Positions 3,773 through 52,649 of a DNA stretch of 64,000 nucleotides are shown here, one piece after another. The DNA comes from Yuukianura sp. NJ FZ-2021 (lineage: Eukaryota). The translations under genes and the position numbers were made by a program. Within the stretch, counting starts at the first letter, position 1. Each line of letters begins with the position of its first letter. The notes under the pieces were generated by a model, which saw only the letters and a program-made list of their open reading frames with translations, did no database searches and was not told where the DNA came from. The DNA is taken from positions 248,001-312,000 of the forward strand of contig JAJCTO010000014.1 of NCBI GenBank assembly GCA_046563655.1. The letters run 5' to 3'.

Positions 3773-3773
3773 T

Positions 3774-4703: not shown

Positions 4704-4770
4704 TTTAATAAGATTAGAATGATTGTACAATTTGGTCACATAAAACATACACACTTGTAGGAACTGAAAC

Positions 4771-7505: not shown

Positions 7506-7517
7506 AATAAAAAAAAA

Positions 7518-7760: not shown

Positions 7761-8072
7761 GTTTACATGGAAAATGTTACAAAGTGCATTTTCTCCTTCA
7801 GCCAAAAGGAACAATGCAGTACAGTGTGAATCTGTCTTTTTGTCATCACACCAGAAACCACTGAACGACATGAAGTTGTATTGCATATTCTGCCGAAAAA
7901 AACACATGATGTCTTTTGTGCCATCACTCCAAGAAGACGTCGTGTCAATTCGGCGCAAAAAACAATGTGACATGAATGGCAAAAAAGCATTCTGCATTTT
8001 TTGCCATCATGTCATCAAAACTTGGGGCAACTTGAGATTTGCGGGGGCAGAAGTGGCTTACCTCCCTCATCA

Positions 8073-20000: not shown

Positions 20001-22411
20001 TGCCATCGCTGTACTATGAGTCCTTCCTAGACGTGATCAAATTTCCGACAATTCCAAAAACAACACAAGTGTTAGCGGTCAAAGTTTGAAGTTATGGCCT
20101 CATGCAAACCGGGTAGAAACTTCGTACAAGGGGGGTTCTAAAAGCCGATGCAAACTTTTGAATCATTTAAAAAAAATTTCCCTCCTCACGAACTGAAGCG
20201 TTTTAGCGTTCAAAAGTTTAAATTCTGAATGTGGAGAGAGGCGACTCTGCCATCGCTGTACTATGAGTCCTTCCTAGACGTGATCAAATTTCCGACAATT
20301 CCAAAAACAACACATGTGTTAGCGGTCAAAGTTTGAAGTTACGGCCCCATGCAAACCGGGTAGAAACTTCGGTCACGGGGGGTTCTATAAGCCGATGCAA
20401 ACTTTTGAATCATTTAAAAAATTTCCCTCACGAACTGAGGGGTTTTAGCGTTCAAAAGTTTAAATTCTGAATGTGGAGAGAGGCGTCTCTGCCATCGCTG
20501 TACTATGAGTCCTTCCTAGACGTGATCAAATTTCCGACAATTCCAAAAACAACACAAGTGTTAGCGGTCAAAGTTTGAAGTTACGGCCCCATGCAAACCA
20601 GGTAGAAACTTCGCTCACGGGGGTTCTAAAAGCCGATGCAAACTTTTGAATCATTTAAAAAAAATTTCCCTCCTCACGAACTGAGGGGTTTTAGCGTTCA
20701 AAAGTTTAAATTCTGAATGTGGAGAGAGGCGACTCTGCCATCGCTGTACTATGAGTCCTTCCTAGACGTGATCAAATTTCCGACAATTCCAAAAACAACA
20801 CAAGTGTTAGCGGTCAAAGTTTGAAGTTACGGCCCCATGCAAACCGGGTAGAAACTTCGCTCACGGGGGTTCTAAAACCCGATGCAAACTTTTGAATCAT
20901 TTAAAAAAATTTCCCTCCTCACGAACTGAGGGGTTTTAGCGTTCAAAAGTTTAAATTCTGAATGTGGAGAGAGGCGACTCTGCCATCGCTGTACTATGAG
21001 TCCTTCCTAGACGTGATCAAATTTCCGACAATTCCAAAAACAACACAAGTGTTAGCGGTCAAAGTTTGAAGTTATGGCCTCATGCAAACCGGGTAGAAAC
21101 TTCGTACAAGGGGGGTTCTAAAAGCCGATGCAAACTTTTGAATCATTTAAAAAAAATTTCCCTCCTCACGAACTGAAGCGTTTTAGCGTTCAAAAGTTTA
21201 AATTCTGAATGTGGAGAGAGGCGTCTCTGCCATCGCTGTACTATGAGTCCTTCCTAGACGTGATCAAATTTCCGACAATTCCAAAAACAACACAAGTGTT
21301 AGCGGTCAAAGTTTGAAGTTACGGCCCCATGCAAACCGGGTAGAAACTTCGCTCACGGGGGTTCTAAAAGCCGATGCAAACTTTTGAATCATTTAAAAAA
21401 ATTCCCTCCTCACGAACTGAGGGGTTTTAGCGTTCAAAAGTTTAAATTCTGAATGTGGAGAGAGGCGACTCTGCCATCGCTGTACTATGAGTCCTTCCTA
21501 GACGTGATCAAATTTCCGACAATTCCAAAAACAACACAAGTGTTAGCGGTCAAAGTTTGAAGTTATGGCCTCATGCAAACCGGGTAGAAACTTCGTTCAA
21601 GGGGGGTTCTAAAAGCCGATGCAAACTTTTGAATCATTTAAAAAAAATTTCCCTCCTCACGAACTGAGGGGTTTTAGCGTTCAAAAGTTTAAATTCTGAA
21701 TGTGGAGAGAGGCGACTCTGCCATCGCTGTACTATGAGTCCTTCCTAGACGTGATCAAATTTCCGACAATTCCAAAAACAACACAAGTGTTAGCGGTCAA
21801 AGTTTGAAGTTACGGCCCCATGCAAACCGGGTAGAAACTTCGGTCACGGGGGGTTCTATAAGCCGATGCAAACTTTTGAATCATTTAAAAAAAAATTCCC
21901 TCACGAACTGAGGGGTTTTAGCGTTCAAAAGTTTAAATTCTGAATGTGGAGAGAGGCGTCTCTGCCATCGCTGTACTATGAGTCCTTCCTAGACGTGATC
22001 AAATTTCCGACAATTCCAAAAACAACACAAGTGTTAGCGGTCAAAGTTTGAAGTTACGGCCCCATGCAAACCAGGTAGAAACTTCGCTCACGGGGGTTCT
22101 AAAAGCCGATGCAAACTTTTGAATCATTTAAAAAAAATTTCCCTCCTCACGAACTGAGGGGTTTTAGCGTTCAAAAGTTTAAATTCTGAATGTGGAGAGA
22201 GGCGACTCTGCCATCGCTGTACTATGAGTCCTTCCTAGACGTGATCAAATTTCCAAGAATTCCAAAAACAACACAAGTGTTAGCGGTCAAAGTTTGAAGT
22301 TACGGCCCCATGCAAACCGGGTAGAAACTTCGCTCAAGGGGGGTTCTAAAACCCGATGCAAACTTTTGAATCATTTAAAAAAAATTTCCCTCCTCACGAA
22401 CTGAGGGGTTT
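8073..22411 (+). repeat. ~245-bp satellite DNA array, block 1 (~58 monomers)
   Basis: Head-to-tail near-identical monomers (GCAAACTTTTGAATCATTTAAAAAAATTTCCCTCCTCACGAACTGAGGGG...). Measured periods 244-247 bp, varying mainly in homopolymers. Confidence 0.99.
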
Positions 22412-23099
22412 CCAATAGTAGCGTTGTCGGATTCTTGCAAACGTCTTGGTGAATCCTAGGTGTCCGGCAATTGCGTCGTCGTGATAAGCGTGTAAAATTT
22501 CCGGTGTCATGACTGCGGGAAGGACAGGAATGGGTTGCCCGTCACGATTGTGGTGATATAGAATATCGCAAATGATTGTATAACCTTTGGGTTTGCTACC
22601 ATGTGATTTAATAAGCTTCAGCTTAATTGACTTGATGGTGTCATCCTTATCCTGGGACTCGGCTAGCTGGAGTGGCTGAATCGATGCAATTGATACATCG
22701 GCTGATTGATTTGAGACTTCATTTGGTCGTCCTGTTTCTATAGCTGGGCAACGCGACAATGCGTCAGGAACATGATTTGTTGAGCCTTTAATGTAATAAA
22801 TCCCATCTACATCGAATTCAGAAATTTTGAGTGCCATGCGTGTTAACTTCGGGCTAATTTCCTCCTTTTTAGCGTTTTGAATCCAACATAGCGCATGGTG
22901 ATCGGTAAAGATTTTGAATCGATGTCCATCTAAAAACTGTCGAAACTTCTTCAATGCGAATGTAATCGCCAGCAGCTCGAGTTCTGTTGTTGTCCATTTC
23001 TGCTCGGCTGGAGTGAGCGTGCGGGAGACAAAGGCAATCGGTTTTTCTTGTCCGTTGTGTATTTGTGAAAGGACTGCTCCGATGCCTTGCGTGCTTGCT
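22412..23099 (-). pseudogene. Internal fragment of a Ty3/gypsy pol gene (RNase H to integrase zinc-binding start), no LTRs
   Basis: ASTQGIGAVLSQ...PIAFVSRTLTPAEQKWTTTELELLAI...FTDHHAL...NHVPDALSR (Ty3 RNase H), then HDDAIAGHLGFTKTFARIRQRYYW (HHCC first half). Both ends of the listed ORF are satellite-derived. Confidence 0.92.
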
Positions 23100-26000
23100 C
23101 CGATGCAAACTTTTGAATCATTTAAAAAAAAAATTTCCCTCCTCACGAACTGAGGGGTTTTAGCGTTCAAAAGTTTAAATTCTGAATGTGGAGAGAGGCG
23201 ACTCTGCCATCGCTGTACTATGAGTCCTTCCTAGACGTGATCAAATTTCCGACAATTCCAAAAACAACACAAGTGTTAGCGGTCAAAGTTTGAAGTTACG
23301 GCCCCATGCAAACCGGGTAGAAACTTCGGTCACGGGGGGTTCTATAAGCCGCTGCAAACTTTTGAATCATTTAAAAAAAATTCCCTCACGAACTGAGGGG
23401 TTTTAGCGTTCAAAAGTTTAAATTCTGAATGTGGAGAGAGGCGTCTCTGCCATCGCTGTACTATGAGTCCTTCCTAGACGTGATCAAATTTCCGACAATT
23501 CCAAAAACAACACAAGTGTTAGCGGTCAAAGTTTGAAGTTACGGCCCCATGCAAACCAGGTAGAAACTTCGCTCACGGGGGGTTCTAAAAGCCGATGCAA
23601 ACTTTTGAATCATTTAAAAAAAAATTTCCCTCCTCACGAACTGAGGGGTTTTAGCGTTCAAAAGTTTAAATTCTGAATGTGGAGAGAGGCGACTCTGCCA
23701 TCGCTGTACTATGAGTCCTTCCTAGACGTGATCAAATTTCCAAGAATTCCAAAAACAACACAAGTGTTAGCGGTCAAAGTTTGAAGTTACGGCCCCATGC
23801 AAACCGGGTAGAAACTTCGCTCACGGGGGTTCTAAAACCCGATGCAAACTTTTGAATCATTTAAAAAAATTTCCCTCCTCACGAACTGAGGGGTTTTAGC
23901 GTTCAAAAGTTTAAATTCTGAATGTGGAGAGAGGCGACTCTGCCATCGCTGTACTATGAGTCCTTCCTAGACGTGATCAAATTTCCGACAATTCCAAAAA
24001 CAACACAAGTGTTAGCGGTCAAAGTTTGAAGTTATGGCCTCATGCAAACCGGGTAGAAACTTCGTACAAGGGGGTTCTAAAAGCCGATGCAAACTTTTGA
24101 ATCATTTAAAAAAATTTCCCTCCTCACGAACTGAAGGGTTTTAGCGTTCAAAAGTTTAAATTCTGAATGTGGAGAGAGGCGTCTCTGCCATCGCTGTACT
24201 ATGAGTCCTTCCTAGACGTGATCAAATTTCCGACAATTCCAAAAACAACACAAGTGTTAGCGGTCAAAGTTTGAAGTTACGGCCCCATGCAAACCGGGTA
24301 GAAACTTCGCTCACGGGGGTTCTAAAAGCCGATGCAAACTTTTGAATCATTTAAAAAAATTCCCTCCTCACGAACTGAGGGGTTTTAGCGTTCAAAAGTT
24401 TAAATTCTGAATGTGGAGAGAGGCGACTCTGCCATCGCTGTACTATGAGTCCTTCCTAGACGTGATCAAATTTCCGACAATTCCAAAAACAACACAAGTG
24501 TTAGCGGTCAAAGTTTGAAGTTATGGCCTCATGCAAACCGGGTAGAAACTTCGTTCAAGGGGGGTACTAAAAGCCGATGCAAACTTTTGAATCATTTAAA
24601 AAAATGTCCCTCCTCACGAACTGAGGGGTTTTAGCGTTCAAAAGTTTAAATTCTGAATGTGGAGAGAGGCGTCTCTGCCATCGCTGTACTATGAGTCCTT
24701 CCTAGACGTGATCAAATTTCCGACAATTCCAAAAACAACACAAGTGTTAGCGGTCAAAGTTTGAAGTTACGGCCCCATGCAAACCGGGTAGAAACTTCGC
24801 TCAAGGGGGGTTCTAAAAGCCGATGCAAACTTTTGAATCATTTAAAAAAAATTTCCCTCCTCACGAACTGAGGGGTTTTAGCGTTCAAAAGTTTAAATTC
24901 TGAATGTGGAGAGAGGCGACTCTGCCATCGCTGTACTATGAGTCCTTCCTAGACGTGATCAAATTTCCGACAATTCCAAAAACAACACAAGTGTTAGCGG
25001 TCAAAGTTTGAAGTTATGGCCTCATGCAAACCGGGTAGAAACTTCGTACAAGGGGGGTTCTAAAAGCCGATGCAAACTTTTGAATCATTTAAAAAAAATT
25101 TCCCTCCTCACGAACTGAAGGGTTTTAGCGTTCAAAAGTTTAAATTCTGAATGTGGAGAGAGGCGTCTCTGCCATCGCTGTACTATGAGTCCTTTCTAGA
25201 CGTGATCAAATTTCCGACAATTCCAAAAACAACACAAGTGTTAGCGGTCAAAGTTTGAAGTTACGGCCCCATGCAAACCGGGTAGAAACTTCGCTCACGG
25301 GGGGTTCTAAAAGCCGATGCAAACTTTTGAATCATTTAAAAAAAATTCCCTCCTCACGAACTGAGGGGTTTTAGCGTTCAAAAGTTTAAATTCTGAATGT
25401 GGAGAGAGGCGACTCTGCCATCGCTGTACTATGAGTCCTTCCTAGACGTGATCAAATTTCCGACAATTCCAAAAACAACACAAGTGTTAGCGGTCAAAGT
25501 TTGAAGTTATGGCCTCATGCAAACCGGGTAGAAACTTCGTTCAAGGGGGGTACTAAAAGCCGATGCAAACTTTTGAATCATTTAAAAAAAAATTTCCCTC
25601 CTCACGAACTGAGGGGTTTTAGCGTTCAAAAGTTTAAATTCTGAATGTGGAGAGAGGCGTCTCTGCCATCGCTGTACTATGAGTCCTTCCTAGACGTGAT
25701 CAAATTTCCGACAATTCCAAAAACAGCACAAGTGTTAGCGGTCAAAGTTTGAAGTTATGGCCTCATGCAAACCGGGTAGAAACTTCGTACAAGGGGGGTT
25801 CTAAAAGCCGATGCAAACTTTTGAATCATTTAAAAAAAATTTCCCTCCTCACGAACTGAAGGGTTTTAGCGTTCAAAAGTTTAAATTCTGAATGTGGAGA
25901 GAGGCGTCTCTGCCATCGCTGTACTATGAGTCCTTCCTAGACGTGATCAAATTTCCGACAATTCCAAAAACAACACAAGTGTTAGCGGTCAAAGTTTGAA

Positions 26001-29000: not shown

Positions 29001-29273
29001 AGCCGATGCAAACTTTTGAATCATTTAAAAAAAATTCCCTCCTCACGAACTGAGGGGTTTTAGCGTTCAAAAGTTTAAATTCTGAATGTGGAGAGAGGCG
29101 ACTCTGCCATCGCTGTACTATGAGTCCTTCCTAGACGTGATCAAATTTCCGACAATTCCAAAAACAACACAAGTGTTAGCGGTCAAAGTTTGAAGTTATG
29201 GCCTCATGCAAACCGGGTAGAAACTTCGTTCAAGGGGGGTTCTAAAAGCCGATGCAAACTTTTGAATCATTTA
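23100..29273 (+). repeat. ~245-bp satellite DNA array, block 2 (~25 monomers)
   Basis: Same monomer and orientation. Ends at GAATCATTTA, the TSD of Polinton-2. Confidence 0.99.
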
Positions 29274-29560
29274 AGTTAGTGTTAAATGATTACTAAAAGA
29301 ATGTAGGTCAAGCCCCCCTCCCCACAGCCCCATCCCCTGTTCGTTCACCCCGTTCCATTGTTGAAAAGTTTAGCCCTGAGGCAATGAGTGGTGGAATGAA
29401 ATTTAAATTTGCAAATTAAAAAAATATTAATAAACAATAATTTGTTTAATTAATTAGTTATTATTTGTATTTATAATTTTAAATTTAATTTAGTTTTAAA
29501 AGTGTTATACAAAAAAAATAAAAATAAAAATTTTTTTTCGAGATTCGAACTCGCGTCAAC
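29274..29560 (+). repeat. Left terminal inverted repeat of Polinton-2
   Basis: First ~140 bp are roughly 90% identical to the reverse complement of 52505-52649. A degenerate AT-rich match continues to the B box at 29541-29551. Confidence 0.9.
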
Positions 29561-29864: not shown

Positions 29865-31332
29865 TCATTCCCATTTGCCATTAAACAGATGACGTTTCTT
29901 CAGCACTGGAAACTAATCCCGTAGGATTCAAGTCCAGTGCTGAATACTGCGGATTTGTAACCGCAAATGGGAACGAAACCATGTTCCCGCGAAGAAATGG
30001 ATTGGTGCTGGTGCTGGGTGCTTGGTACCTAGTACCGGTACCTGAAATAAAAACAAAATTTGATTAAAAAAAAAGTTGCAAAAATCTGCAATGCAGTTTT
30101 TTGCAAGCAAACAGAATGACAATGGAGAGAGATGCGGGATGCTTACTTCTACGTCCGCACTCTCCACTCTACTCTCCACTCTCATTCTGTTTACTTGCAA
30201 ATAAAATTGCATTGCAGATTCTGAATAAAGTAGCTTTCGCTACTTAATAAAAACAAAAACAAACCTTGCCTTGGCCGCGAATACTCCGGATGCTGCCGCT
30301 TGGCAGCCAGTCTTGCCGACTGCCGTAACGGCTCCAAGTGCTGCACCATCGTGGGGCTGGTCAGGTTGGGGTATTCACCCCACGGTGGTGGGGCCAAGCC
30401 AGTCGCTGCTACTGCAGGGGTTGTTGGAGCTGGACGGTGGGGCAGCTGGGGTGGGGCAGTGGTGGCACGTCGTGGGGCAGGAGGCGTAGCTGGATGTGGT
30501 GTTGGTGGGCGGGGCCTAAATCCCCGATGTTGGTGGGGCTCTCTCCACTCCCGAACCCACCCAATCAACCACCGAATCCCTGCACCCACGACACATGTTG
30601 TCACTACTGAAACAAAGACAAATCATGAATTAGTGATTTGTATGGAATGTGACAACGAAAAATGAATTTTCTTTAACATGTTGGGTACTACCTCGCTTAT
30701 TGACAAAAATGAAAAAAAAAACATCTTGTACCAATTTCGGTATAAAAAAAAATCGAATGTAAAATTAAAAAATTCAGCTGTATTGTTAAGACTACGATAT
30801 CATGAAATGAAAGAAACTCTTTCTTTTTGCAAAATCGAAAAAACATGAGGTATTACTCAACCTGTTAAAGAAAATCAAAGTCAATAAACCTTGCTAACTC
30901 TGAATCGTTCCAATTTTAGTAAAAAAAAAAGACTTACACGCCAACCATGCTGCCAAAATGATGGCAGCAGTCTCCCACTCTGTTGCAGGGACCCCCTCTC
31001 GTACTTGGTCAGGCTGGGGGCACTTGAGGGTGTCAGGGGGAGCCACGAGAAGATGCAGCGCCCATTGGGGGTATCCCCAATGGGGTGGCATACCCCCACC
31101 CCGTCTTCACGCCTCGACCAAGCGCATCGCTCCCCCAGACACTGAACACAGGGCCAGTTCAGGTCACACTTCGGTGGGTCCCCAAACCCCGTGGCTCCAA
31201 ACAATACCACGATTGCCAAATGGCCCAGCAACATTCGAAAATTTTCCTAAAAATAAATTTTAATTAATAATTTTTTAGTTTTTAGTTTATTTTAGTTTAA
31301 TTGGTTTAATTTTAATTATAAAAACTTACCAT
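29865..31332 (-). CDS. Putative type I membrane protein A: signal peptide, PSI-like Cys domain, TM, Pro-rich tail (multi-exon; one apparent frameshift; 3' exons uncertain)
   Basis: ATG|GTAAGT at 31332. Exon 31246-30938 MENFRMLLGHLAIVVLFGATGFG-DPPKCDLNWPCVQCLGERCAWS...C needs +1 nt in a C/G run near 31070 to continue LLVAPPDTLKCP...TAAIILAAWLA. Exon 30606-30265 LVTTCVVGAGIRWLIGWV...Pro-rich...YPNL. Confidence 0.6.
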
Positions 31333-31814: not shown

Positions 31815-33743
31815 TTATTTTAAATCTAAAATTAAATTGAAATTCGTGTTGGTGTTGGCCTCCATGGCTTCTAGGCGCTGTAATTCCTCCTGCCATTGCC
31901 GAATAGCTAGGCTCCTATGTCCCACGACCAGATTTGGACTGAATGGGTGCTGGAACATTAATCCGTCCAGAGTTGTGACACGACCTAAATTTTAAATTTC
32001 ATTATTAAGCTTGAAAAATATGAAAAAAAAATGCAAAAAATTGTTTCTTACTCATTGCTACATAAACCAACTGAGGCGCCTGACTAGTAAACATTGTTGA
32101 TGTGTCACCGGGTGCTGGATTCCCCACCACTACCCGTTTGCAAGTTTTGCCCTATAAAGAAAAAACAAATGATCAAATGTTTTTAGCATAGTCTTGAGGT
32201 AATTCACCTGTGCCTTGTGACATGTCATTCCCCAAGCCAGTTGCAATGGGAATAACTTTCTTTGGTAAGTTCTTCCTGCATACTTGTCATAGTATGGCAT
32301 CACAACCGGAACTATAGGAATGTCTCTCCTGAGTGGATAAGCAACGCCAAAATATGAATCAGGACGCACGAAAATAAAGTTTGGAACTCCATTTTCATCC
32401 ACATCAGTTGAGACTTGAGTCACGGTGACAAGAGCTCCGTTGTAAAGACCTTTTAGAAAAATTCAAAATTAGTCTTTTTAAAATTAGTATGGTTAGGACG
32501 GCATACCTGCAGCGACAAAAAGATTTTTTGTTAACATGCAGCGGGCTCCAACCGCCAGCTTCAATTTGTCGCCAGTCTTTGACTCATCTCGCAAGTCGAT
32601 GGCGTCCACCTCCGTAATGTCTACGCCCAGCTCCGAAATTCGTTTTCTAATTTTTTCACATTTTTAATAGTATGCATAAATTCAGTTTCTTACAAAGACT
32701 TACTCATTGTAACTATTCACGTTGTGATTTTCTGCAAAGAGAACAGGAGCCGAGAGGAAAAGTGAAAGCTCTTCAGCAGTCAGCAGTGAAGAAAGTTTTT
32801 CCAAAGACCTCAATTGCAGCGCTTCAATGTCTTCTTCTTCTAGTTGCCCGCATCTTACGCGCGACAGAATTTCTTTTAACTTGGCTTGAGATTCATCTTG
32901 TCGCATAATTTCTGTCAGTATGACGCATTTGTTAAAATGTGCATACGCCTTGATCCCGTCCAAGCACAAGCCTTCGGCGTGCATTGACTTGTAATATAAG
33001 GGTCTATCTGCCACTGGACTTAACCTTTAACATCAAACATCACTATTATACGGTTTATACATTTAAAAGTGTAACTTACTGTGCCAGATCACCCATGGCC
33101 AACACCGTAAGACCTCCAAACGGATCTTGTGTCCTGAAAATTGCGCGGAGTCTTCGCTCCATGTATCCTAGGAGACCAACCCCAAGCATAAAAACTTCGT
33201 CAATTATTAACAGCCGTACTCCTTTCAGTCTCTCCCGTGGAAAGTCCACGTATTTTTCCGGGTCGTGTTTTCGATGGCCTAAACTCAATGAGAGACCACT
33301 GTGAACAGTTATTCCTCCCGCGTTAAATGCTGCTGCGCCCGTAAATGCAAAAACACGGAAACGAATCTTTTTCTTTTCGAGATAGCCTCTTAAATAGTGT
33401 ATAATGAAGCTTTTTCCTGAAATTTTGAAAAAAAAAAAGTTAATTTCAAATGAAATTTCTAAAGAAATTTTGACTTGCCTGTCCCAGCAGCGCCGTGACA
33501 CAAAATGAATTCCTGGTTACGAGCTTCGAGTGCTTCTGTGACCAGTTTCGCTGTTTGACGCTGCTTGGAATTGAGCTGCTCGAGTACCACTTCCGGAAAT
33601 ACTCTGTTCACCGGCTGTGTTTTGCTGTACTCGATAAATGTCATTGGGTTGCTAGGTACCAACTTTGGAACAACTTTTCCTGTAGTTTCGTCTTTCTGCA
33701 ATTTTCTTTTGAGTGAACTTTTATCCATCCTTACTGTCTGCAA
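31815..33743 (-). CDS. PIF1-family SF1B DNA helicase, 7 exons
   Basis: Introns 33478-33417 (GC-AG), 33079-33025, 32703-32647, 32506-32450, 32207-32152 and 32051-31985 give one open frame with GAAGTGKS, FTGAAAFNAGGITVHS, LLIIDEVFM, FGGLTVLAMGDLAQLSPV, LTEIMRQ, LAVGARCMLTKNL..AGLYNGA, FPLQLAWGMTCHKAQGKT, YVAMSRVTTLDGL. Confidence 0.93.
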
Positions 33744-34135
33744 CGCTTGATTGATGATACCGGTAGACGTGAGGAGTAGAAAACGTTAAAGTTTTTCAAA
33801 ATTTCTTCTTGAGTGTGAGCAGCGTCTAATCCTGTGACTCTTCCAATTTTGAATCGGAACCCGCCAAATGTAAATGGTTCTTTGCTGGACCAGCGACGAA
33901 TGCTACAAAGAATCTCCACGATATCTAAAGGCTTTGAAGGCTTGGCCGAGGGGCAGACGTGCTGCGCAAATCCGTCCCATACAATGTCACAGTTTGTGCA
34001 CTGCGAGTAGTCTTCCCGAACAATTCTCTCAATATCTCGGCAGCGCGATTTAGTAAGCCTGTCTTTGAGTACCTTGATTCTGATTGGACTAAATATTTTT
34101 ACACATCTGCAGCAGTGATGTGTACTTGAATACAT
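33731..34135 (-). CDS. Hypothetical Cys/His-rich protein
   Basis: 134-aa ORF with HHCCRC and CTNC...HVC, overlapping the helicase start. No family recognised. Confidence 0.5.
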   Translation of the reverse strand: MYSSTHHCCRCVKIFSPIRIKVLKDRLTKSRCRDIERIVREDYSQCTNCDIVWDGFAQHVCPSAKPSKPLDIVEILCSIRRWSSKEPFTFGGFRFKIGRVTGLDAAHTQEEILKNFNVFYSSRLPVSSIKRCRQ

Positions 34136-34816: not shown

Positions 34817-35717
34817 ATGGGAAGCAATAGCGCTGGTGAGTATTTACTTATTGATACCAAAAGTTTCTTTTTGGATTTTATTCTTTTAAAATACTTTCAG
34901 AGGTTCCATCGCAAAAGGTAGGAGCGTTTCGGAGACGCTTGGATTTTGATGACGCAGATGAAGCTACACCGGCCGTCAGGAGTCGACGGGCCATTGACTT
35001 GTTGACCGGCGTCGCCAATCCAGGCCAGGACGTTGTGGAGGGAAGACCGCCGAACACTCCATTTATTTTCACTGAGGCATTCTCTGGGTTACCGATGAGT
35101 TATGTCAAAAAGGCAAAGCAACTGGAGCTTGGGCCAAAGAATGCGCAAGCGTTCTTTGGTGAATTGGGGCTCGTGGAAAAATTTGGGACTTCAACAACGT
35201 TTTACGCTCGGCTTGGATTTGACCCATTTTCTCAAAGTAAGAAAAAGAATGATTAGTTTCGGCTCATATTTTTAACTCTTCGTCTTTTCTTTTTCTTGCA
35301 GCGATGAAAATTTACATCCAAAAGCTAAACTCGAATGCGAGCCCAACGATCCTTGGAATTTTGTTTCGAGAAGTTGGTGTGATCCTGGATCAAATAAAAT
35401 CGACCTTGGCTGAGATTGACGAGTCTGTGAAGGCAGGAGCTCCCTTATTCAAGTACGAGCCGGGAACTCTGATTGAGCCCAAAGAGTTATCATTCTGGAC
35501 GCACGACGACGCTTGGTATAGCGAAACGATGAGATTTAGAATGCGCTTTGTCAACGTCCGGAGGGATAGATATTTTTTTTACCTCAATTCTCAAAGTGAT
35601 AACTCCAAATTTGACGGCTATTTTGGGCCAAAGTTAACGTTTTGTCGGGGAGACATTGATGGGTTTGTGAAGACAATGCAAAATATCATTGCTAAGGTTG
35701 ACCCTGAAGATTTGTAA
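34817..35717 (+). CDS. Hypothetical protein, 3 exons (34817-34835, 34901-35236, 35302-35717); possibly tandem PC4/PUR-like ssDNA-binding repeats
   Basis: GTGAGT..TTTCAG and GTAAGA..TTGCAG introns join two listed ORFs in frame. AATAAA follows the stop. Fold guess rests only on a repeated strands-then-helix pattern. Confidence 0.65.
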
Positions 35718-38614: not shown

Positions 38615-39769
38615 ATGTCTGAAAGACAAATAAAGTCAGCCTATTTGAATAAAAAAGCAGTTGGAAGCTTTTCAGGTTTTCCGTCATTCTTAAAGTCGTC
38701 AGGTTTTTTAGACAAAGAGAAGGTCAAGCAAGCTTTGTCCGGAGTACCTGCATATTCTCTGCACAGGCCGCAAAGAAAGCCAAGGACCAGGCCAGTATTA
38801 ACGTTTTTTCCTATATGACGTTCGGAGTGGATCTTTTACAGTTGGATAAAAAGTCTGCCAAAAAAGAAAAGATTGGCTTCATTCTCATCTGCATGGACTT
38901 GTTTAGCCGCTTTGTGTGGACAGAGTTCTGTGTCAACAAGACAGCACGGGTCGTTCTAGAAGCCATAAAGAAAGTTTTCAAAAAAGCTGGGGTAAATGTC
39001 TTCTTTTCTCTCTCAAGTCCATTTAAAGTTTATCATTTTTTTTTTCTCAGCATCTGCCGCATTTCTTGGCTTCTGATTTTGGAAAAGAATTCAAGAATAA
39101 AAGCCTTTTGAAATATTTGGAAGCCAATGACATTCACAGTTATTCGCCGAGAACTGCGAGAAAAGTTTCACAAGTAGAACGTGTAATTCAAACGTTAAGA
39201 AGAAACTTGACCCGGGCTCAATTTGCCAATCCAAAGTCTTCTATGAAAACTCTATGGCCGGACATTGTTTCAAATTACAATAAAACGGTGCATTCAACCC
39301 TGAAAATGACCCCCACGGAGGCTATTGACCCCAAAAACAAAACTACAGTTTTTATAAACGTCTACGACAAACTAATTAATTCCAAACCCGAGAAGCCAAA
39401 ATTCAAGGTAACAGTTAAACATTCCCTTTGTCCTATAAAAACATGTCTCTTCTTTCCAGGTGAATCAGCTCGTGAGGGTCGCAAAAAAACGTCTAACTTT
39501 TGAAAAAGCTTCAACGTCACAATCGTACTCTACGGACATCTTTCGGTAAAAAACGAATTTGCCCAATTTTGGGATGTCAACAAAGTGTCCTTTTTTATAG
39601 GATTCGAAAGGCAATCAGCGCAGTGCCTCCATTCTACTACCTTGAGACGCTGAAAAAGGAGGAAATTAAAGGTAATCATTTTAGACGGATTTTGGAAGTT
39701 GACAACGATACATCTAATTCTTTTTTAGGAAGTTTCTTGAACGAAGATTTGACCCCAGTGACTGCATAA
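38615..39769 (+). CDS. DDE integrase (Polinton-2), 5 exons, one apparent 1-nt frameshift near 38805-38815
   Basis: Introns 38992-39050, 39408-39459, 39546-39600 and 39672-39728 restore FGVDLL...CMDLFSRF...LASDFGKEF...VERVIQTL...YNKTVHSTLKMTP...KFK/VNQLVRVAKKRLTFEK...IF/RI...IK/GSFLNEDL. Confidence 0.9.
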
Positions 39770-39771
39770 AA

Positions 39772-40881
39772 ATGTACCCGTTTTCACGCTTCGTGACCCT
39801 AGGTTCCACTTCATTTCCCTCGTTCTTCCCTTCAAACAATACAAGTTCTTTTCGAAATAGGCTTTTGGACAGTATTACTTTGCAAAAGAATCTCCCGCTT
39901 GAAGTTGCAGTGTGTAATTTGTGGTACCCCGCAACGCCAGACACTGGAAAATATACGATTTTTGGCCATGAATCCGACGACAATGTCGTTTCCGTGGTTC
40001 AACGCTTTGAATCGAGCATGGAAGTGTTTCGAGCCGAAAGTGAAAGTTATATTGAAACAATGAACAAATGCAATACGAATTTTGCAATATTCAACAACAA
40101 GCTGACATTCCTGTTGGAAGTACAAGATGGAAGGGACTTTTTAATATTTCGCAACAATGACACTGGCTACGACGTGAAAATTCCAGAAGTCTATGCGTAT
40201 GCTCTCGGATTTACAAAAAATGTGTTTGGCCAAGGTGAAACCGATGCCCCATTGTCTCCAAACCAAACTGCTTTGGACGCCATCGACATTTCAGAGCCGC
40301 TCAAGTTCACTGTTTTTCGTGAAGTCAGTTCTACCGTAAAGGTCAATGAACCCAATGTCAAGACTGTCGAAGGCCTAGTCAGTGAAATCAATGCGGCTTT
40401 GAAACAGTTGGAAATTTCATTTTCCTACGACGGAAGCAAACTCAGCGTCAACGGCGTCTCCGGAAGAGGCTATAGTGTTCGTCTCTCGGAATTTCTTGAA
40501 AAAACGTTTGGCCTCAAAACTCCATGTTGGTTTAGCTTCAACAACACTTCATCCCCGACAATCGCCAACATTGACCTGGATATACATCACAACAATGTGA
40601 TTGTGCTCTGCGATGCTGTTAAACCGCAGGAATTCAAATCCAAGGCAGTCCGGCACATGAGCATTTTGCCAAGGCGAGATTTGAAAAAAGAGGAAGGAGT
40701 TAGAATTGTACACGAAACCCCACGGCCACTGCTATACTTTCCTGTTGACATGGACCGGAAGGAAATTAATGAAATTGGAATCGATCTCGTTTTTGAAAAT
40801 TTGGAACCAATCCCTCCAGCTAACGATTTATATTCCGCGGTGTACTTCACTTTCAAAATAAAACTTTATAAATATAAATAA
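39772..40881 (+). CDS. Minor capsid/penton-like protein (PZ), divergent, intronless
   Basis: FVTLGSTSFPSFFPSNNTSSFRNRL...LEVAVCNLWYP and IVLCDAVKPQ...PLLYFPV...INEIGIDL align by eye to Polinton-1 PZ. Follows the integrase as in element 1. Confidence 0.85.
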   Translation: MYPFSRFVTLGSTSFPSFFPSNNTSSFRNRLLDSITLQKNLPLEVAVCNLWYPATPDTGKYTIFGHESDDNVVSVVQRFESSMEVFRAESESYIETMNKCNTNFAIFNNKLTFLLEVQDGRDFLIFRNNDTGYDVKIPEVYAYALGFTKNVFGQGETDAPLSPNQTALDAIDISEPLKFTVFREVSSTVKVNEPNVKTVEGLVSEINAALKQLEISFSYDGSKLSVNGVSGRGYSVRLSEFLEKTFGLKTPCWFSFNNTSSPTIANIDLDIHHNNVIVLCDAVKPQEFKSKAVRHMSILPRRDLKKEEGVRIVHETPRPLLYFPVDMDRKEINEIGIDLVFENLEPIPPANDLYSAVYFTFKIKLYKYK

Positions 40882-40932
40882 TCTGCTGCATTAGTTAGTC
40901 GTCATTTGACTTTCGTTGGAGCCAGAGGCCAC

Positions 40933-41289
40933 ATGCTTGAAGTTGTGTGTGAAGGTGAAGGTTGTAAGCTTTTGAAAAGAATGGACGGAGAAAAGACTCG
41001 CCAGGTTGGGTACGGGGCGTTGACCCCTGTAGTTTTACCAAATTCAATTCCATTCCAGAGTGTGAAAAAGGCTAAAAAGGGTAAAAAGAACGGTGCTTCA
41101 GAAATGACAGGAGAAGGACGAAAAAAATCCAAAGGCCGTAAAAAGACTGGAGCTGCTAAAAGAAAAGGAAAAGCACCCCAAAAGAAAGTGTCCGCGGTGG
41201 AAACTTCTGCTTCTAAAAAGAAAACTCCTCAAAAGAAAAAGATCGGCTGTGGACCAACGAAACAAGCCAAGCCAAAATCGTTTAAATAG
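40933..41289 (+). CDS. Lys-rich basic core-like protein
   Basis: QVGYG, MTGEG and IGCG motifs, very Lys-rich. Lies immediately upstream of the MCP like PX in element 1. Confidence 0.65.
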   Translation: MLEVVCEGEGCKLLKRMDGEKTRQVGYGALTPVVLPNSIPFQSVKKAKKGKKNGASEMTGEGRKKSKGRKKTGAAKRKGKAPQKKVSAVETSASKKKTPQKKKIGCGPTKQAKPKSFK

Positions 41290-41352: not shown

Positions 41353-42653
41353 ATGGCTTCAGTAAACACGCTTCCGGGTACAAAGCCCAACTACGTTTCC
41401 CAACTCGATCTATTTTCAGTTCCCCCGACTGACATTAGTGTGCAACAAACAGAGTTCATCAAGATTATTCCAGTGAATACTGTAAAAGAAAATCCTCAAA
41501 TCACGTTCAACATTGGGCAGTTTCAATTCCCGCCCAACGTTTACTTGGATTTCTCATCATCATACCTCTACCTTAAATGTAAAGTGCTCACTGCAAGTGG
41601 AGAAACGCTTCCGGACAATGCCGACGTTGCTATTAGCAACATGATGTTCTACACAATCTTTGACTCTTGCATTGTCACCGTCGGCGGCGTTCAAATGAGT
41701 GAGTACCCACAGAGTTACAGTTACAGAGGAATTCTGTCGCATCTCCTGGGCTACAGTCAAGAGCTCAAAACGAGCCTCCTGTCATCAATTGCCTACTACC
41801 CAGATTCCAAACAGGATGTCTTTGACGCAACAAACACTGGATATACGAAAAGAAAAGCCATTTGTGCCGGGTCAAAGACCTTTGATTTATTTGGAAAAAT
41901 CTCATGTTCATTGTGTGAACTCCAACGATGGATTCCTTCGGGACTAAAAATTGAACTTACGCTGACTAAAAGCTCAGCCCTCTTCTGCTTGGACACGCCC
42001 ACCGACACAAAGTATACGTATTCCATTGAAGATGCCGTCTTTCATCTCAAGGCACATACAATTAGCCCTCGAATCTACTCTAATCATCAGCAGCTATTCA
42101 ACCATGGAAAAAAAGCAATCTACAGTTACCGAGAAATTGAAATTGAAAGAAACACAATCGCTTCCGGAACTGTCAGCTTCACCTCGGACCGGCTTTTTCT
42201 TCGGAGGATGCCTACGATTGTTGCAATTGCGTTTGTGAAATAAAATCGTTTCGGGGAAGCTACAAGAATAGTGCCCAGAATTTTGCCGACTTTGGCGTAA
42301 CGTCAGTCAGCGTCAGAACAGAAGAATTTGTTCCATTTTACAGAGAACTCGTCTGTAATTACGCTGCAAACCTGTACATGGAACCATTCGTGGCTCTTTT
42401 TGATACACTCGGTTCTTTTGGAAACGGAATTTCCCGCGAGAATTTCAAACTTGGCAACGCCGTCTACCTTTTCCAACTTTCTGAAGCTGCAGTCTCGAAC
42501 AATGACCTCCTTCCTGCGCGTGAAGGGCCCGTCCGTGTAACAGCAGTCTTTGCTGAAGCCCTGAACGAGCCAGTCGAGTTGATTGTGCTGGGAACTTTTC
42601 AAAACGTTTTAACAATTGACAAAAACAGAAACGCCCAAGTTCTTAAAACTTGA
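41353..42653 (+). CDS. Major capsid protein (PY), one 1-nt frameshift at ~42240
   Basis: SQLDLFSVPPT...YLDFSSSYL...YSYRG...MPTIVAIAFVK, then in the next frame SFRGSYKNSAQNF...LTIDKNR. Adding one base gives 433 aa, the same length as the element-1 MCP. Confidence 0.9.
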
Positions 42654-42655: not shown

Positions 42656-43242
42656 ATGAACGGGACGGAACTGGAGGAAGCAATGGCGTGTATAAAAGAG
42701 TGCTCTGACTCAAAAATTCGAACTTTTGTTACTTCTAATGATGGAATTAGTCTTCTAAACCCACGCCCCCCATTCTGCTGTATACAAAATACCGGATTAA
42801 CTTCTTCTCCAGGTAAATACTCTAGGTAAAAAAAATATGTAAACGCAAGAGATTTATTTTTTGTTTTAATTTAGGAATTCATTGGGTTCTCTGGGCGCAC
42901 TTGGAGCAAGGCCAGTTGGTTTTTTTTGACAGTTTTGGGAAATTGCCTAGCGATTACAACCTATCTCTTCCTTACGGCCCGTGCACTATAATTTCAGAAT
43001 GGAACACTAAAAAACTACAAAGGGATGACAGTGCAACGTGCGGCATGTTCTGCTTAAAAGTCTTTCAAGAGTTGAGCAGCGGAAAGGATTTGTGTACCTC
43101 CTTAAGTATATTTAGTCCTAAAAACTTAAACAAAAACGAAAAAATTGTATCCGATTTTTATAGCAGTTTAAGAATCTGTACGAACAGGGGTCAATCAGGG
43201 TCATCCCAGACATGCTATTCTTATTGCGATTGGCTAAAATAA
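42656..43242 (+). CDS. Adenain-like cysteine protease, 2 exons (42656-42812, 42875-43242)
   Basis: MNGTELEEAM...IQNTGLTSSP/GIHWV...FFDSFG...LQRDDSATCGMFC. 62-bp GTAAAT...TTTAG intron. Confidence 0.9.
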
Positions 43243-43334
43243 CTTTTTACTGTGAATAAAATATAAATATCCTACAATTTCTTGACGATTGTTTCAGTAT
43301 TCATTTCACTCATTTTGAGTCAACAAGTAGTGTA

Positions 43335-44001
43335 ATGGCTCTCTGCAGTTTCCTCTTGTTGTGTTTACTAATCTCAGCGTCATCAGGCAAGTAACCAATT
43401 TCCTTCTCCATGGTCATTTTTTTGTGATTCTTTTCTTTTTGGAAGCAGGAGAGCAAAAAACTCTCCAAGAGCGCTGTAGGAACTGCATCTCAGGCGGTCA
43501 TGTATTTATCAAAGGATGGCATTTCAATTCGATTCAAAACTTTTTTTGCACAAATGACTTGACCCGGAACCTCCCGGGAACACTCATTATGGGCGCAACT
43601 AACGTCACAGCCAATTGCGATTCCCACCAACAAGATACGGATGGAACCGTTTATGGAACGTTGTTTGCTGATAATTTCAGCAATGGGACGGCGCTAAAAG
43701 ACATTTCGAATTTATTGAGAGCGATGACCGGCTGCAAGAGGCAACAAAAGTATGAACCCGCCTCCCAACTTCCAGTATTACAAGCTATTCTGGGTATGCT
43801 ACACCTTATAGTCTGGTCGCCTATATGCATTAATTGTTTTATTTATCCACAGCCTTGTCCTGCGTGACTTTTGCCGCCGCCGTCGCAAACGTCTTGGGGT
43901 GGAGTTTGGGAGGTCAGTGCCATGGTAGCCAATCCCGCGGGACATTCGGCAGTGTATTTAACGTCGCTCTCCGTCGATCCCCCCGTCAGTCCGAAGTCTG
44001 A
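43335..44001 (+). CDS. Putative type I membrane glycoprotein B, 3 exons (43335-43386, 43449-43793, 43853-44001)
   Basis: Signal peptide MALCSFLLLCLLISASS, GC-AG intron (GCAAGT), ectodomain CRNC...C...C with NVT/NFS/NGT sequons, TM LPVLQAILALSCVTFAAAVANVLGW, tail ending SEV. Confidence 0.65.
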
Positions 44002-44058: not shown

Positions 44059-47000
44059 ATGGGTTTTCTGAATAAACGGGCAGCAGAGGTAAAAAAAATT
44101 CTAAGCCGTCTTATTATTGTTGTTTCACAAAAATTTTTATTTATAGTTTAGTTGCGGTTATCAAAGTGCTACGTTGCACTGCCCTTTCAAGTGCTCGACC
44201 TACAAGGCCATGGCCATCCATGTGGAAACTGTAAGACATTACTTTTAGTATGCGGAAAGATGTGAAACTTTCACTTTTGATGCAGGTACATAGCTGTAAT
44301 TCTTGTGGAGGGTACTTTGATGAGGCTAGTCTTCACCGTCCAATCTGCCCTCAGAGAGGCATGGGCCGTACAGCGAACAATGACCTCGCTACGGTGGACA
44401 TCCGCCCTTTCAAAGAAATCCGCCATGCTCTCAAGGGGACTTTGAAGTTGTTTTCTGCACCCGTTGAGCCACCCACCGAATGTCAAGTACTCTCCGTTTT
44501 TGAAAACCTCGACTTTCCTATTAGAAAGTTACTGAAATCCGTGATTGGGCAGTACAGCGGAGTCAAAGTCAACTTTACTTTAATTGCTGACATGATTGAG
44601 GTCACACACAATGTCATTCACCTCGGAGACGCCATCGGAGCTCCTTTCATGCCTCTTTCTCATCCCGATTTCATTTCAAGGGTGGTTACAAACTCTTGCG
44701 TATACATCATTAACGCCCTCAACTTATACCTAGAAAACGGAAGCAATTGGCAAATTCTACGGCTACGTTCTCTCAACATTGGTATTGGTCAGTGGAGTCC
44801 AATTGTTCGAGGGCGGGGCTACATTCCGATTCCAAAGGAATTGGCTCGGAGGCGCGGACTGCTGTCGATAAATACCAATTCCAACTGTTTTCAATTGAGC
44901 GTACTATGTGCACTATACGAAGATGAAATTTTGGAGTTGGGAAGAATGAAGCGGCACTGTCTTGGGCTCAAGGATCACCAAAATTCAAAAGTTGAGAGAG
45001 CAATTTTAGAAAAAACAGCAAGTTATGAAGCCTTTTTAGAGAGATTGGATCTGAGCTTTCTCCCTCGCTCTGACGTTTCTCTTTTGGACATTGACTTGGT
45101 CGAAGAGAAATTCCCAGAACTTAGCATCACCGTATACGGAAACCAGGGATCGGACATTGTTCTGTGGCGTGCACCACAAACTGAGAGAGCGAATCACGTC
45201 AATCTCCTACTAATCAAGCACCCAGAACGAGAAGAACATCACTTTGTTTGCATTCGGGACATTTCGGCACTTCTCGGAAAAATGGGTAATTACAGACACC
45301 AATTTTGTCCTGTCTGTCAAAAACGTTTTGACTCTAGGACTTGGTCTTCCGTAAACCATACATGTGGTGAAAACTCTGTAAAAGTAAAAGTACCTACGAA
45401 TGATATTGTCAAATTTCGCAAGTTTGATGCCCTCCTAAAAGCTCCTTACATTTTTTTCTACAAATTCTTCTACATCTCTGTCCAAACTCCGATGACCATT
45501 GGACAAGAATGTATCAGTGTTACTGAAAAAGCTCCAATTGCGTTCAGTCTAGTGAGTATATGTGAAACAGGACACGTAGACCGCCACTCTTACATCGGAA
45601 AAGACTGTGTGGACGTTTTCTTTAAAACTGCAATGGAAATGGCGAAGATGAAGCTGGACGAAATTAAATTTACAAACAAGATGCTTCAGATGACAGAAGA
45701 ACAGGAAAGGCTTTTTCTGCAAGCGACACATTGCGAAATTTGTGGAAAACAATTCAACGACGTTTCTGTGCTTAAGGCTTACCACCATAACCATTTCACA
45801 GGAGAGAAGATGCAGACATGTTGCACAAACTGCAACTTGGAAATCAAACCAAAGAACCGTATTACAGCGATTGCATTTTGTGAAAAAAATGAGTTTAATT
45901 TTTTGCTAAAATGCGTGAAAGATGAGCACGGAATTGCCACGCCAATTCGTAGAAAGGAAGGCAATACAATAGGCATGGACTTGAGAAAAACCATTTGTAA
46001 ACAAAAGTATGACCTTTACTTTGGGGTCAAATTTGTGGATTTTCAAAATTTTCGTCCAGACTCTCCTCTCTCAGATCTTGTACAGGAGCTGAAGATGTCA
46101 GGCATTGGATTTCCAATCTTTCAAAAAATTTTTGGCCAACAACTTTCTCCCGACGCTACACTAACTGCCGCAGACGACATTCTCCCCGAATTTTCATCGG
46201 TTGATAATTTTTTCGAAAACCAATCCGTGCCGTTCGTGAGTCTAGAAGGTTCGAGTAAATTCCAACTTCCTGACTCTTGGAAACAACTCTCCTTGGAAGC
46301 CATAGTTCGGCATAAACTTAACAGTGTCGCTGCTCTAACGGCAGACGTTTTCCAAGCGATTCGAAACGAATATTGGAAAGAGTTTCATTTGGATCTGGCT
46401 TCCTTTTGGAGCATTTCTTCATTTTCAAGAGAAGCCGCATTCCTAATGGAAAAGTGTGTAATTCAAGCCGTCACGGACGAAGAAATTTCAAAACTAATTA
46501 CACGAGGAATTATTGGCCCTGTGATTCAAGTTACAAAGTTGAAGTCTATTGCCAACAATGAAGAGCTCTCCAACTATGACCATACCCTTCCACAAAAAAT
46601 AATTTTTTATGCTGACATTAACTCCTGTTACAGCAAGTGCTTCTTGGGTAATTTACCGTGCGGAGACTACAAAAAATTGAGAGCAGAGGAGATCATGAAG
46701 TTTGATTTCAACAAACCAGATTTTGACGAAGGCTGGGGTTACCTCTTTGAAGTCGACCTTGAATATCAAAGTGAAGCAGTGAAAGAGTTCCTTTCAGACT
46801 TTCCCTTCCCGCAACAGAGACTCAAGGTTTCTGCTCAAGAGCTTTCTGCATTCCAGCAGGAGAGTTTGGGAGAAAAAACAAACATTGAACAAGAGCGAGT
46901 GCTTCTGACCCTCTACAAAAAAATACGACAAGTCTACTACGGAAAGTACCTCAAGTTCATGATTGACCATGGCGCAAAAGCAACAAAGTACTATTCAGTA

Positions 47001-47909
47001 GTTCGATTTCGGGAGTCTCCGATTTTTGCAAATTTTGCAGCTAGCAATGTTATAGCTAGAAACCAAGCAAAGTATCCCCTTCAAAAACAACTTCGGAAGC
47101 TTTTAAACAACTCGCTGTATGGACAGATGCTGAAAAACAATGCAGATTACATACGTTCAAAGACCATCAGATCTTCGGTGGAAGCGAAAGCAGAACTTGC
47201 GAAAGCAACTTTCAAGTCGTTTGAGATTTTGGACGAAGACACTGCGCTTTTTGACTTTTCAAAAGGAGAAATCACCGATTACAATCTACGCATGATTGGA
47301 CTTGCAATACTTTCAAATGCAAAAATTATGCTCTACTCACACTACTATGACGGACTAAAACGTGAGTTTGGGGACAGGTGCCATCATGTGATGACTCATA
47401 CTGACAGCATAGTTGCTGAAATCCACTGTAGCAGAGCCGAATGCGTAGCTGGTCTGAAACGACTTTCAAATCGCTTCGACTTTTCTAATCTACTGCCGGC
47501 ATCCGAACTCTATGATGCATCTCGGGCAGGAATACCTGGACTCTTGAAGATTCAAGCTGAAGGAATCAAAGAATTTTACTCTACTTCCTGTTCCCAATAT
47601 TCCATGGAAATTGATTCAGCACATGGACAATCCAACATTCTGAAAGCGGGCGGAATTCCGAAAACAGAGGCCAAGGATCTGAGGCACGCTGATTTTAAGC
47701 GCGTAGTTGAGCATGGAGAGGCTTTGAAGAAAGTAAAAATTTCTACGGTGAAAATTTTACATGACCAAATGTTAGTTGTCACAAGTAACCGCTCATCCCT
47801 CACCTCCAGCATCAACGCATCAAGATTTTTTGTGTCAAACACAATTTCCCTTCCCTTTGGAGACAAGCGTATTGACACCATAGTTGATTATGATTTGAAA
47901 AATAATTAG
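44059..47909 (+). CDS. Protein-primed family B DNA polymerase, 3 exons (44059-44088, 44147-44230, 44286-47909)
   Basis: Spliced N-terminal C2H2 finger (CGYQSATLHC...HVETVH). ENGSNW...GRGYIPIP; NCF...HFVCIRDIS; EndoVII/HNH-like CEIC...HHNHFTG...CN; YADINSCY; FEVDLEY; KLLNNSLYG; HTDS; C-terminal SLPFG. Confidence 0.93.
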
Positions 47910-52354: not shown

Positions 52355-52649
52355 GACGCCAGTTCGAAACCAGATTTTATTTTTTTTTTTATTTGTTTTT
52401 TCATTTTTTTTTTAAAATTAAACTTGGATAATTTAAAAATAATAAATACAAATTAATAATTAATCAATTAACTAAATTTTGTTTATAAAAATTTATAAAA
52501 TTAAACTTGTAAATTTAAATTTCATTCCACCACTCATTGCCTCAGGGCTAAAAAATTCTCAACAATAGACCGGGGTGAATGGACAGGGGATGGGGCTGTG
52601 GGGAGGGGGGCTTGACCTACATTCTTCTAGTAATCATTTAACACTAACT
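52355..52649 (-). repeat. Right terminal inverted repeat of Polinton-2
   Basis: Reverse complement of 29274-29560. Ends ACACTAACT. Confidence 0.9.

Follow-up and report, generated by a model that had tools for sequence, protein, structure and literature searches.

A 23,376-bp Polinton (Maverick) in a 64,000-nucleotide stretch of the genome of Yuukianura sp. NJ FZ-2021 (assembly GCA_046563655.1, contig JAJCTO010000014.1, positions 248,001 to 312,000 of the forward strand; this whole stretch is called the window below) contains a stand-alone gene for a PIF1-family helicase, in addition to a family B DNA polymerase of the protein-primed kind (pPolB). This raises the question of whether the helicase belongs to the Polinton and, if so, what it does there. 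An initial annotation had proposed that the helicase, a degenerate pPolB, G-quadruplex (G4)-forming terminal inverted repeats (TIRs) and a possible gene for a single-stranded DNA-binding protein make up a modified replication module. The helicase is almost certainly a real, selected part of the Polinton: its frame is intact, it is under purifying selection, its position is conserved in three lineages, and it co-occurs with dead exonuclease motifs and with no detectable packaging ATPase. A modified replication module is still the best reading, the helicase being stably present with a pPolB whose exonuclease motifs are dead, but the DNA-binding part of the proposal found no support. Polintons of this PIF1-bearing lineage probably copy themselves unlike ordinary Polintons. 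The three genes on which the argument turns are:

31815..33728, minus strand: PIF1-family superfamily 1B (SF1B) helicase, 7 exons, 519 amino acids, no Rep domain
34817..35717, plus strand: partner gene, 3 exons, 256 amino acids, head-to-head with the helicase gene wherever both were found
44235..47909, plus strand: group-2-type pPolB, open over 1224 amino acids, with an EndoVII/HNH-like insert; ratio of non-synonymous to synonymous substitution rates (dN/dS) 0.10

The helicase gene, its copies and its origin

The helicase exons, on the minus strand, are 33728-33479, 33416-33080, 33024-32704, 32646-32507, 32449-32208, 32151-32052 and 31984-31815. Spliced, they give 1560 nt, encoding 519 amino acids and a stop codon with no internal stops. 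The six introns, whose splicing is predicted from the DNA sequence, are 55-67 nt long; intron 1 has GC-AG borders and the other five GT-AG, and the GC donor is kept in all three fully alignable sibling genes. A spliced-alignment script returned the same six introns, but its query was the model protein, so that it does not test the model independently. The first ATG falls at 33728, 15 nt within the earlier coordinate of 33743, and a relative on a metagenome contig starts at the matching place. With its start mended in this way, the initial description of a seven-exon open frame holding all the helicase motifs was confirmed.

The motifs expected of an SF1B enzyme are present and in order: Q (residue 52), I (79, GAAGTGKS), Ia (108), Ib (118), II (154, IIDE), III (192, GDLAQ), IV (236), A (295), B (350), V (425) and VI (460). 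The Walker A motif is interrupted by an intron. Exon 2 matches the Pfam PIF1 family (PF05970) at E 1.3e-12, above the cut-off, and a profile of the exons compared with solved structures ranks Pif1 proteins at the top (Bacteroides-type 5fhd, E 8e-21). Between motifs II and III, Pif1 proteins have the signature DKLeXvARaiRKqXkPFGGIQli (PMC8998199). The corresponding region here, at residue 172, has the R..R and PFGG elements, while the DKLE and IQ positions have diverged, as in Helitron-type helicases. The product is assumed to be an ATP-driven 5'-3' unwinding enzyme, its polarity being that of its family.

A search of the genome with the DNA of the helicase gene gave eight matches including the window itself, corresponding to three other full-length genes (one split by an insertion into two matches) and three fragments. 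The full-length siblings lie in the same gene order inside Polinton copies. They are stop-free, 92-94% identical in amino acid sequence and have dN/dS values of 0.089, 0.093 and 0.118 (0.09-0.12) at a dS of ~0.35; the presence of the gene in sibling copies, a check proposed at the outset, was thus borne out. Among the fragments, with dN/dS of 0.11-0.19, one has a stop and two are frameshifted. The introns of the window gene and its siblings are 92-93% identical at aligned positions, against only ~72% at synonymous sites; AT richness might account for this, as might constraint on short introns.

A second family of Polintons carries a helicase 37-38% identical to that of the window. It comprises three TIR-bounded elements of 21-24 kb (C5c, C5d and C9) and a disrupted locus or fragment (C10b). 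The same partner gene is present in C5c, C9 and C5d, with no partner match at C10b, and the pPolB is degenerate. Predicted intron positions in family 2 are mostly unlike those of family 1, to which the window element belongs. A decayed helicase and partner pair lies at C1:802-806 kb. Two family-2 elements (L050 and L057-L058) have a BIR and RING (IAP-like) gene between the penton gene and that for the major capsid protein (MCP); the open reading frame (ORF) that follows the family-2 helicase looks like an SF2 domain without activity, and close to the end of C5c an ORF has some likeness to a SET domain.

A profile of the partner gene picked out one protein among 7188 candidates, on metagenome contig L097. 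This contig carries a helicase (57% identity, from a predicted model), the partner (54-66%), the ORF upstream of the helicase, an integrase and a penton-like gene, and thus the helicase-partner module occurs in a second organism. Five introns of its helicase are at, or next to, window positions. On L097-L098 the helicase directly adjoins the integrase, an order unlike that of both families here.

These copies bear on the outcome that the initial annotation had named as fatal to its reading, namely that the gene is a nested Helitron fragment absent from other copies. This did not hold, as the siblings, family 2 and L097 all carry the gene, and a recent nested fragment is ruled out. That the helicase is such a fragment, or a neutral passenger, is hardly credible. 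It is true that the genome is rich in Helitrons and that the nearest relatives of the helicase include many that bear Rep (35 of 150). However, six Helitron Rep queries gave no match at E<=1 across the whole window, in keeping with the initial annotation, which saw no HUH/Rep domain near the gene. Only ~50 amino acids precede motif Q from the ATG at 33728, and there is no HUH Rep fusion of the kind seen in Helitron RepHel proteins. A scan of both strands for CTRRT between 30.6 and 34.8 kb gave 22 short matches, none of them backed by a hairpin as judged by eye rather than by a formal hairpin test. The window helicase is only 24-27% identical to the helicases of the genome's own Helitrons, its dN/dS is ~0.1, and it keeps the same partner in three lineages and in a second organism. 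The approximately unbiased (AU) test rejects a tree in which the window helicase groups with the Helitron2 helicases of this genome (p 3e-5).

An ancient Helitron origin, unlike a recent fragment, is part of the best explanation. The helicase shares the PIF1-family fold and motifs with the RepHel proteins of Helitrons (e.g. Helraiser, PDB 7lcc), and its nearest relatives outside its own clade are mostly Rep-bearing; it differs from RepHel in having no HUH Rep and no recognised Helitron ends. The genome's other PIF1 matches that were inspected are Helitron RepHel, or Helitron2/Helentron-like with an endonuclease tail (10 of 20 loci, from 45 matches). A library of 1.84 billion proteins gave the 150 matches mentioned above, Rep having been detected by local BLAST. 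In a tree of 40 rows drawn from 161, the five Polinton models share a clade with P0013 (97/95); together with P0018 and P0153 (91/90), this clade joins 12 helicases, 10 of them Rep-bearing, at 97/98. A FastTree of all 161 rows adds P0018, P0023, P0026 and P0027 to the Polinton-helicase clade at 91. These trees are arbitrarily rooted and include no labelled host, bacterial or Tlr1-like PIF1. The helicase was probably an old capture from a Rep-bearing, Helitron-type helicase, a direction of transfer that we infer from sequence comparison. Such an origin points to gene flow from Helitrons to Polintons.

A host PIF1 of the cellular type was not found in two genome searches, in which only the top candidates were scored and exons were matched singly; C3:6914k and C4:22.8k, considered as cellular PIF1, looked Helitron-type. 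Exon 2 alone, used in a protein search, gave 775 candidates with none at E<=0.001. There was no match in a phage collection. Viral contigs yielded nothing for pPolB and six weak helicase loci for P0013, none of which matches any gene of the window Polinton.

Immediately upstream of the helicase gene is a further frame:

33731..34135, minus strand: Cys-rich ORF, dN/dS 0.13 against a sibling, 35% identity in L097

Its stop lies 2 nt before the helicase ATG (33728-33733), a gap that is 5 nt in L097, and coupled translation or a bicistronic message is possible.

The polymerase and the proposed replication module

The window pPolB aligns over its full length with group-2 pPolBs, with TPR2 and motifs A-C, the first Asp of motif C being replaced. 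Acidic residues are gone from Exo I (where DFE has become KFF), Exo II, the DS motif and Exo III, and RKGxYPY is missing, so that the typical proofreading-exonuclease motifs of Polintons are absent. In the polymerase domain the motif A Asp is kept, motif B is close to the canonical form, THTDS stands at motif C, and the KxY and KG lysines are replaced. Both key metal-binding aspartates are kept in every PIF1-lineage pPolB that was read, and the vOTU Cys and His are retained in family 1. Compared with one sibling, dN/dS is 0.097 overall and 0.08-0.15 across all domains, the palm/TPR being the most constrained (0.077); on these values the pPolB is altered and maintained, not decaying. To that extent the term degenerate, used in the initial annotation, needs qualifying.

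In family 2 the pPolB has the same loss at Exo I and the same xTDS, its KxY and KG lysines are replaced, and it has also lost the Asn and Tyr of motif B. The Exo I DxE is lost in all five full-length PIF1-bearing elements examined. By contrast, the canonical pPolBs of the same genome (five shown) keep DFE, YD, DS, Y/D and DTD, and the TIR-bounded canonical elements have a packaging ATPase in six of six cases and a PIF1 match in none of the six.

It is somewhat probable, on balance, that the helicase powers strand displacement on behalf of the exonuclease-dead pPolB. Protein-primed replication peels off the parental strand starting from its 5' end, and because of this a 5'-3' helicase on the displaced strand would move with the fork. 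The helicase would be the Polinton's own 5'-to-3' SF1B enzyme, fixed in a replication module with the altered pPolB and the partner gene. On excised linear DNA, protein-primed synthesis would begin at each TIR, with the pPolB elongating the new strand but being poor at opening the duplex unaided. PIF1 would load on the displaced strand, whose 5' end is freed first, and travel in the direction of the polymerase, opening the duplex in front. A further task of PIF1 may be to remove the G4 that the G-rich 3' TIR arm can form when the displaced strand has to re-pair its ends. Every enzymatic step of this scheme is one that we infer. In yeast, Pif1 assists Pol delta in displacing strands (PMC8998199).

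The yeast precedent, in which strand displacement by Pif1, Pol delta and PCNA is established, also suits a different division of labour. The pPolB might mainly supply and load the terminal protein primer, leaving elongation to host Pol delta/PCNA while the element's PIF1 drives a fork like that of break-induced replication. The erosion of pPolB motifs beyond the exonuclease (the KxY and KG lysines in both families, xTDS, and the motif B Asn and Tyr in family 2) would be consistent with this, as would the retention of the vOTU Cys and His in family 1. We regard it as unlikely, given that the palm/TPR is the most constrained part of pPolB and that neither metal-binding aspartate has been lost.

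Several observations weigh against strand displacement by the helicase for pPolB itself. In phi29-type polymerases strand displacement comes from the TPR2 region, and the window pPolB has this region at its normal length; for this reason the need for a helicase is not evident from the sequence. Three small TIR elements have a related pPolB and no PIF1: C1a (6.4 kb; L064-L065, G000:C1:141532-147965), C4a (7.6 kb; L070, G000:C4:11097154-11104725) and C3f (9.7 kb; L118-L119, G000:C3:5225880-5235555). The pPolBs of C1a and C4a are clearly degenerate, that of C3f being only partly read, and no integrase, capsid, ATPase or helicase match was found in the three. A deletion derivative of family 1, C3e, likewise has TIRs and no helicase match. 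These helicase-less elements, without an intact integrase or any at all, may depend on helpers acting in trans. Furthermore, the PIF1 elements form one clade of the MCP tree (three of three rows), and thus the correlation between helicase and dead exonuclease represents one event, not five. Whether the family-2 polymerase is active is uncertain, since motif B is eroded too. In the small C1 element, the TIRs are 98.6% identical and there is an apparent 6-bp target-site duplication (TSD).

The TIRs of the window element contain G4 motifs as follows:

29313..29337, minus strand: left-TIR G4 motif of four tracts, the minus strand being the G-rich one, G4Hunter score 2.88
52586..52610, plus strand: right-TIR G4 motif of four tracts, the plus strand being the G-rich one, near its 3' end

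Each TIR has a strict four-tract motif 40 nt from its end, the G tracts falling toward the 3' terminus of each strand. In five of five PIF1 elements, one of six canonical elements and one of three elements with pPolB only, a strict motif is present in the outermost 150 nt of one end or both. Dinucleotide shuffling of the TIR produces it in 56 of 1000 cases, and it is present in 47 of 5544 background 150-mers. In family 1 it is conserved, unlike the first ~30 nt of the TIR. The enrichment in PIF1 elements is suggestive, these elements not being independent of one another.

This distribution and conservation might be taken to mean that the helicase acts mainly locally, resolving the TIR G-quadruplex for priming or re-pairing while pPolB displaces strands alone. 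Such a restricted role seems quite unlikely to us. Besides the relatedness of the elements, some of the matches are long C runs, the motif is found at a single end only in C5d and C9, the ends of the canonical element C4b are placed only approximately, and G4 folding is itself predicted. The motif is present too in two PIF1-less elements, C1c and C4a. Thus the G4-forming potential of the TIR, claimed initially, is matched by a strict motif in the DNA, but the motif is not confined to elements with the helicase.

The partner gene is strongly conserved (dN/dS 0.04-0.05). The suggestion that it encodes a single-stranded DNA-binding protein, for which the PC4, Whirly and PUR proteins were taken as the comparison, found no support in Pfam, the PDB or the ESM Atlas, nor in comparisons of fold. 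There was no Pfam match, the best PDB sequence match had an E of 0.48, two ESM Atlas searches were blank, and a viral fold library gave nothing at E<=0.001. AlphaFold models were poor (pLDDT 38 and 45). A wide fold search gave PAS/longin-type folds at a best Z of 5.2, within noise, and the comparison with Pur-alpha, made from a poor model, ranked 39th (Z 2.9, root-mean-square deviation 3.7 over 69 residues).

Packaging and known relatives

The PIF1 elements also differ from canonical Polintons in a second respect, one that the initial annotation had overlooked. A profile built from seven canonical-Polinton ATPases gave a best E of 2.5 in six PIF1 elements, with 6914 ORF segments searched in all, where controls scored 6e-123 and 2e-42; by this local profile, no A32/FtsK-like packaging ATPase was found, although one that is intron-split and diverged could escape the search. 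A Walker A scan of five PIF1 elements returned the helicase and scattered chance matches. Pfam Pox_A32 had no match inside the PIF1 elements, but it is too insensitive, missing known ATPases as well. Thus, the PIF1 elements combine a dead exonuclease with no detectable ATPase, and the canonical Polintons of the same genome show the reverse.

An A32/FtsK-like ATPase is found in 83% of 72 Polintons (PMC4028283). Table S1 of that paper lists 12 of the 72 without an intact ATPase, of which nine lack the MCP and three have it fragmented; none with an intact MCP lacks the ATPase. Capsid genes kept without an ATPase are therefore a state absent from those 72 elements, and one that implies either helper dependence or another motor. 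Complementation in trans is the plainest explanation for the loss, ATPase-bearing Polintons being common in the same genome.

The other motor could be the helicase itself. In one joint reading, a captured Helitron-type PIF1 both drives replication and replaces the A32-type ATPase, feeding the displaced strand into the capsid. The blank ATPase profile with its strong controls, purifying selection on the MCP, penton-like and protease genes (dN/dS 0.07-0.26) and the precedent of the 72 Polintons would all fit, yet we hold this to be highly improbable. The helicase's own intron-split Walker A illustrates how a diverged ATPase might be missed, an ATPase could be supplied in trans, and the element is known here from its genes alone, with no particles known. 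To our knowledge, packaging driven by a helicase is a feature only of the SF3 helicases of parvoviruses. If true, the joint scheme would make this an animal double-jelly-roll (DJR) virus that packages its genome by means of an SF1B helicase. It would also make it a counterpart, unfused and of independent evolutionary origin, to the pPolB-S1H fusion of Polinton-like viruses (PLVs).

A stand-alone PIF1 in an animal Polinton is already known: Polinton-2_HM of Hydra magnipapillata has a PIF1-clade SF1 helicase immediately upstream of a polymerase described as intact (PMC5499653). That element, of 42.5 kb, is devoid of MCP, penton, ATPase and protease alike (PMC4028283 Table S1). It resembles the present one in being an animal Polinton with a stand-alone PIF1-clade SF1 helicase and a pPolB in one element. 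By its description it differs in that the helicase here has seven exons, that its distance from the pPolB, itself exonuclease-dead, is 10.5 kb (in C5c and C9, ~3 kb), and that capsid genes are kept.

In mavirus and PLVs, the exonuclease is reported to have been lost where a helicase was acquired, and a polymerase lacking the first motif C Asp may still be active (PMC11161782). Mavirus is similar in that its pPolB has no working exonuclease and a changed first Asp in motif C, and in that the helicase has a gene of its own, but most of its exonuclease domain is deleted, its helicase is of SF3, its host is a protist and its ATPase is kept (PMC11161782). The window element, by comparison, keeps an inactivated exonuclease domain and has an SF1B helicase. 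The pPolB-S1H fusions of PLVs, Tlr1 and transpovirons share exonuclease loss, a Pif1-related SF1B helicase and group-2 pPolB kinship, but are single fused proteins, the helicase lying C-terminal to the palm domain, without an exonuclease domain (PMC5499653, PMC11161782); here the two genes are separate, on opposite strands, and the exonuclease domain is present. Canonical group-2 Polintons/Mavericks (adintoviruses; six TIR-bounded in this genome) share AG TIRs, a 6-bp TSD, an RVE integrase, MCP, penton, protease and a pPolB with an EndoVII/HNH-like insert, but those in this genome keep all pPolB motifs and the packaging ATPase, and have no PIF1.

S1H replicases are described in non-animal MELD viruses and almost none in animals (PMC8502044), and in group 2 helicases often replace pPolB (10.64898/2026.06.19.733378). 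The accessible portion of a paper on nematode Polintons mentions no helicase. A literature search, outside which lay Repbase and most subscription journals, found no animal Polinton with a separate PIF1, an exonuclease-dead pPolB, capsid genes and no ATPase. Krupovic and colleagues are said to have proposed that PLVs arose when a helicase joined a polymerase that had lost its exonuclease, the two activities compensating for each other. In the present lineage, which is from an animal, the two genes are unfused and purifying selection acts on both; with the canonical Polintons of the same genome as a control, this makes the compensation idea testable with two purified proteins.

The element and its surroundings

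The Polinton occupies 29274-52649. It has the AG...CT-ended TIRs and the 5-8 bp TSD expected of a Polinton/Maverick, with ends AGTTAG...CTAACT and a clean 6-bp duplication, CATTTA (29268-29273 and 52650-52655), and is inserted in a 247-bp satellite, of which 129 copies lie at 8077-29273 and 52650-64000 of the window. Its remaining features are:

29274..29420, plus strand: left TIR, near-identical core, with weaker likeness to the right end out to ~420 nt
38615..39769, plus strand: RVE integrase, intron-split, with a frameshift near 38812 relative to a sibling
39772..40881, plus strand: probable minor capsid protein (penton), from its placement and a weak homology link
40882..41289, plus strand: basic Lys-rich ORF, probable core protein, dN/dS 0.055
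41353..42653, plus strand: MCP, 29% identical to the window's other MCP, dN/dS 0.07-0.09
42656..43242, plus strand: Adenain/Ulp1-like protease, Pfam C48 at E 0.01, dN/dS 0.26
43331..43867, plus strand: small Cys-containing ORF, probably a membrane protein; both families and the C1 mini-element have it upstream of pPolB
52501..52649, minus strand: right TIR core

The integrase is tied by tblastn to one positive for Pfam rve. The element thus has an MCP, a penton and a protease, of which the penton (dN/dS 0.24) is weakly assigned, its family-2 homologue matching the corresponding ORF of the window's other Polinton at 26% (E 6e-9), and the MCP is frameshifted near 42242 in the window copy relative to a sibling. 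The window's other MCP has a weak Pfam DJR match. The frameshifts near 38812 and 42242 lie at or near short base runs, whereas the helicase and pPolB are open in the same copy; true decay or assembly error is possible.

Uneven dS between the window copy and its sibling at G000:C5:16641-38690 suggests exchange of modules between copies: values are 0.16-0.21 for the integrase, capsid, core and protease genes, 0.36 for the helicase, 0.51 for pPolB, 0.50 for the upstream ORF and 0.6-1.5 for the partner. Pro/Thr-rich, Cys-containing ORFs resembling membrane proteins lie at 30191-30622 and 48199-48760, with 95% and 74% identity to the sibling. An internal inverted repeat at 51180-52134, its arms being ~220-240 nt of short tandem units, is not in the sibling alignments.

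Elsewhere in the window, a second, partial Polinton of canonical type lies at 575-7764, with MCP, protease, integrase and penton-like genes, an ATPase gene that occupies two frames, and a gene whose product has a BIR domain (Pfam E 5e-19), and terminates at a 114-nt inverted repeat. Within the satellite, at 22394-23230, is a retrotransposon fragment comprising reverse transcriptase-RNase H and an integrase zinc finger.

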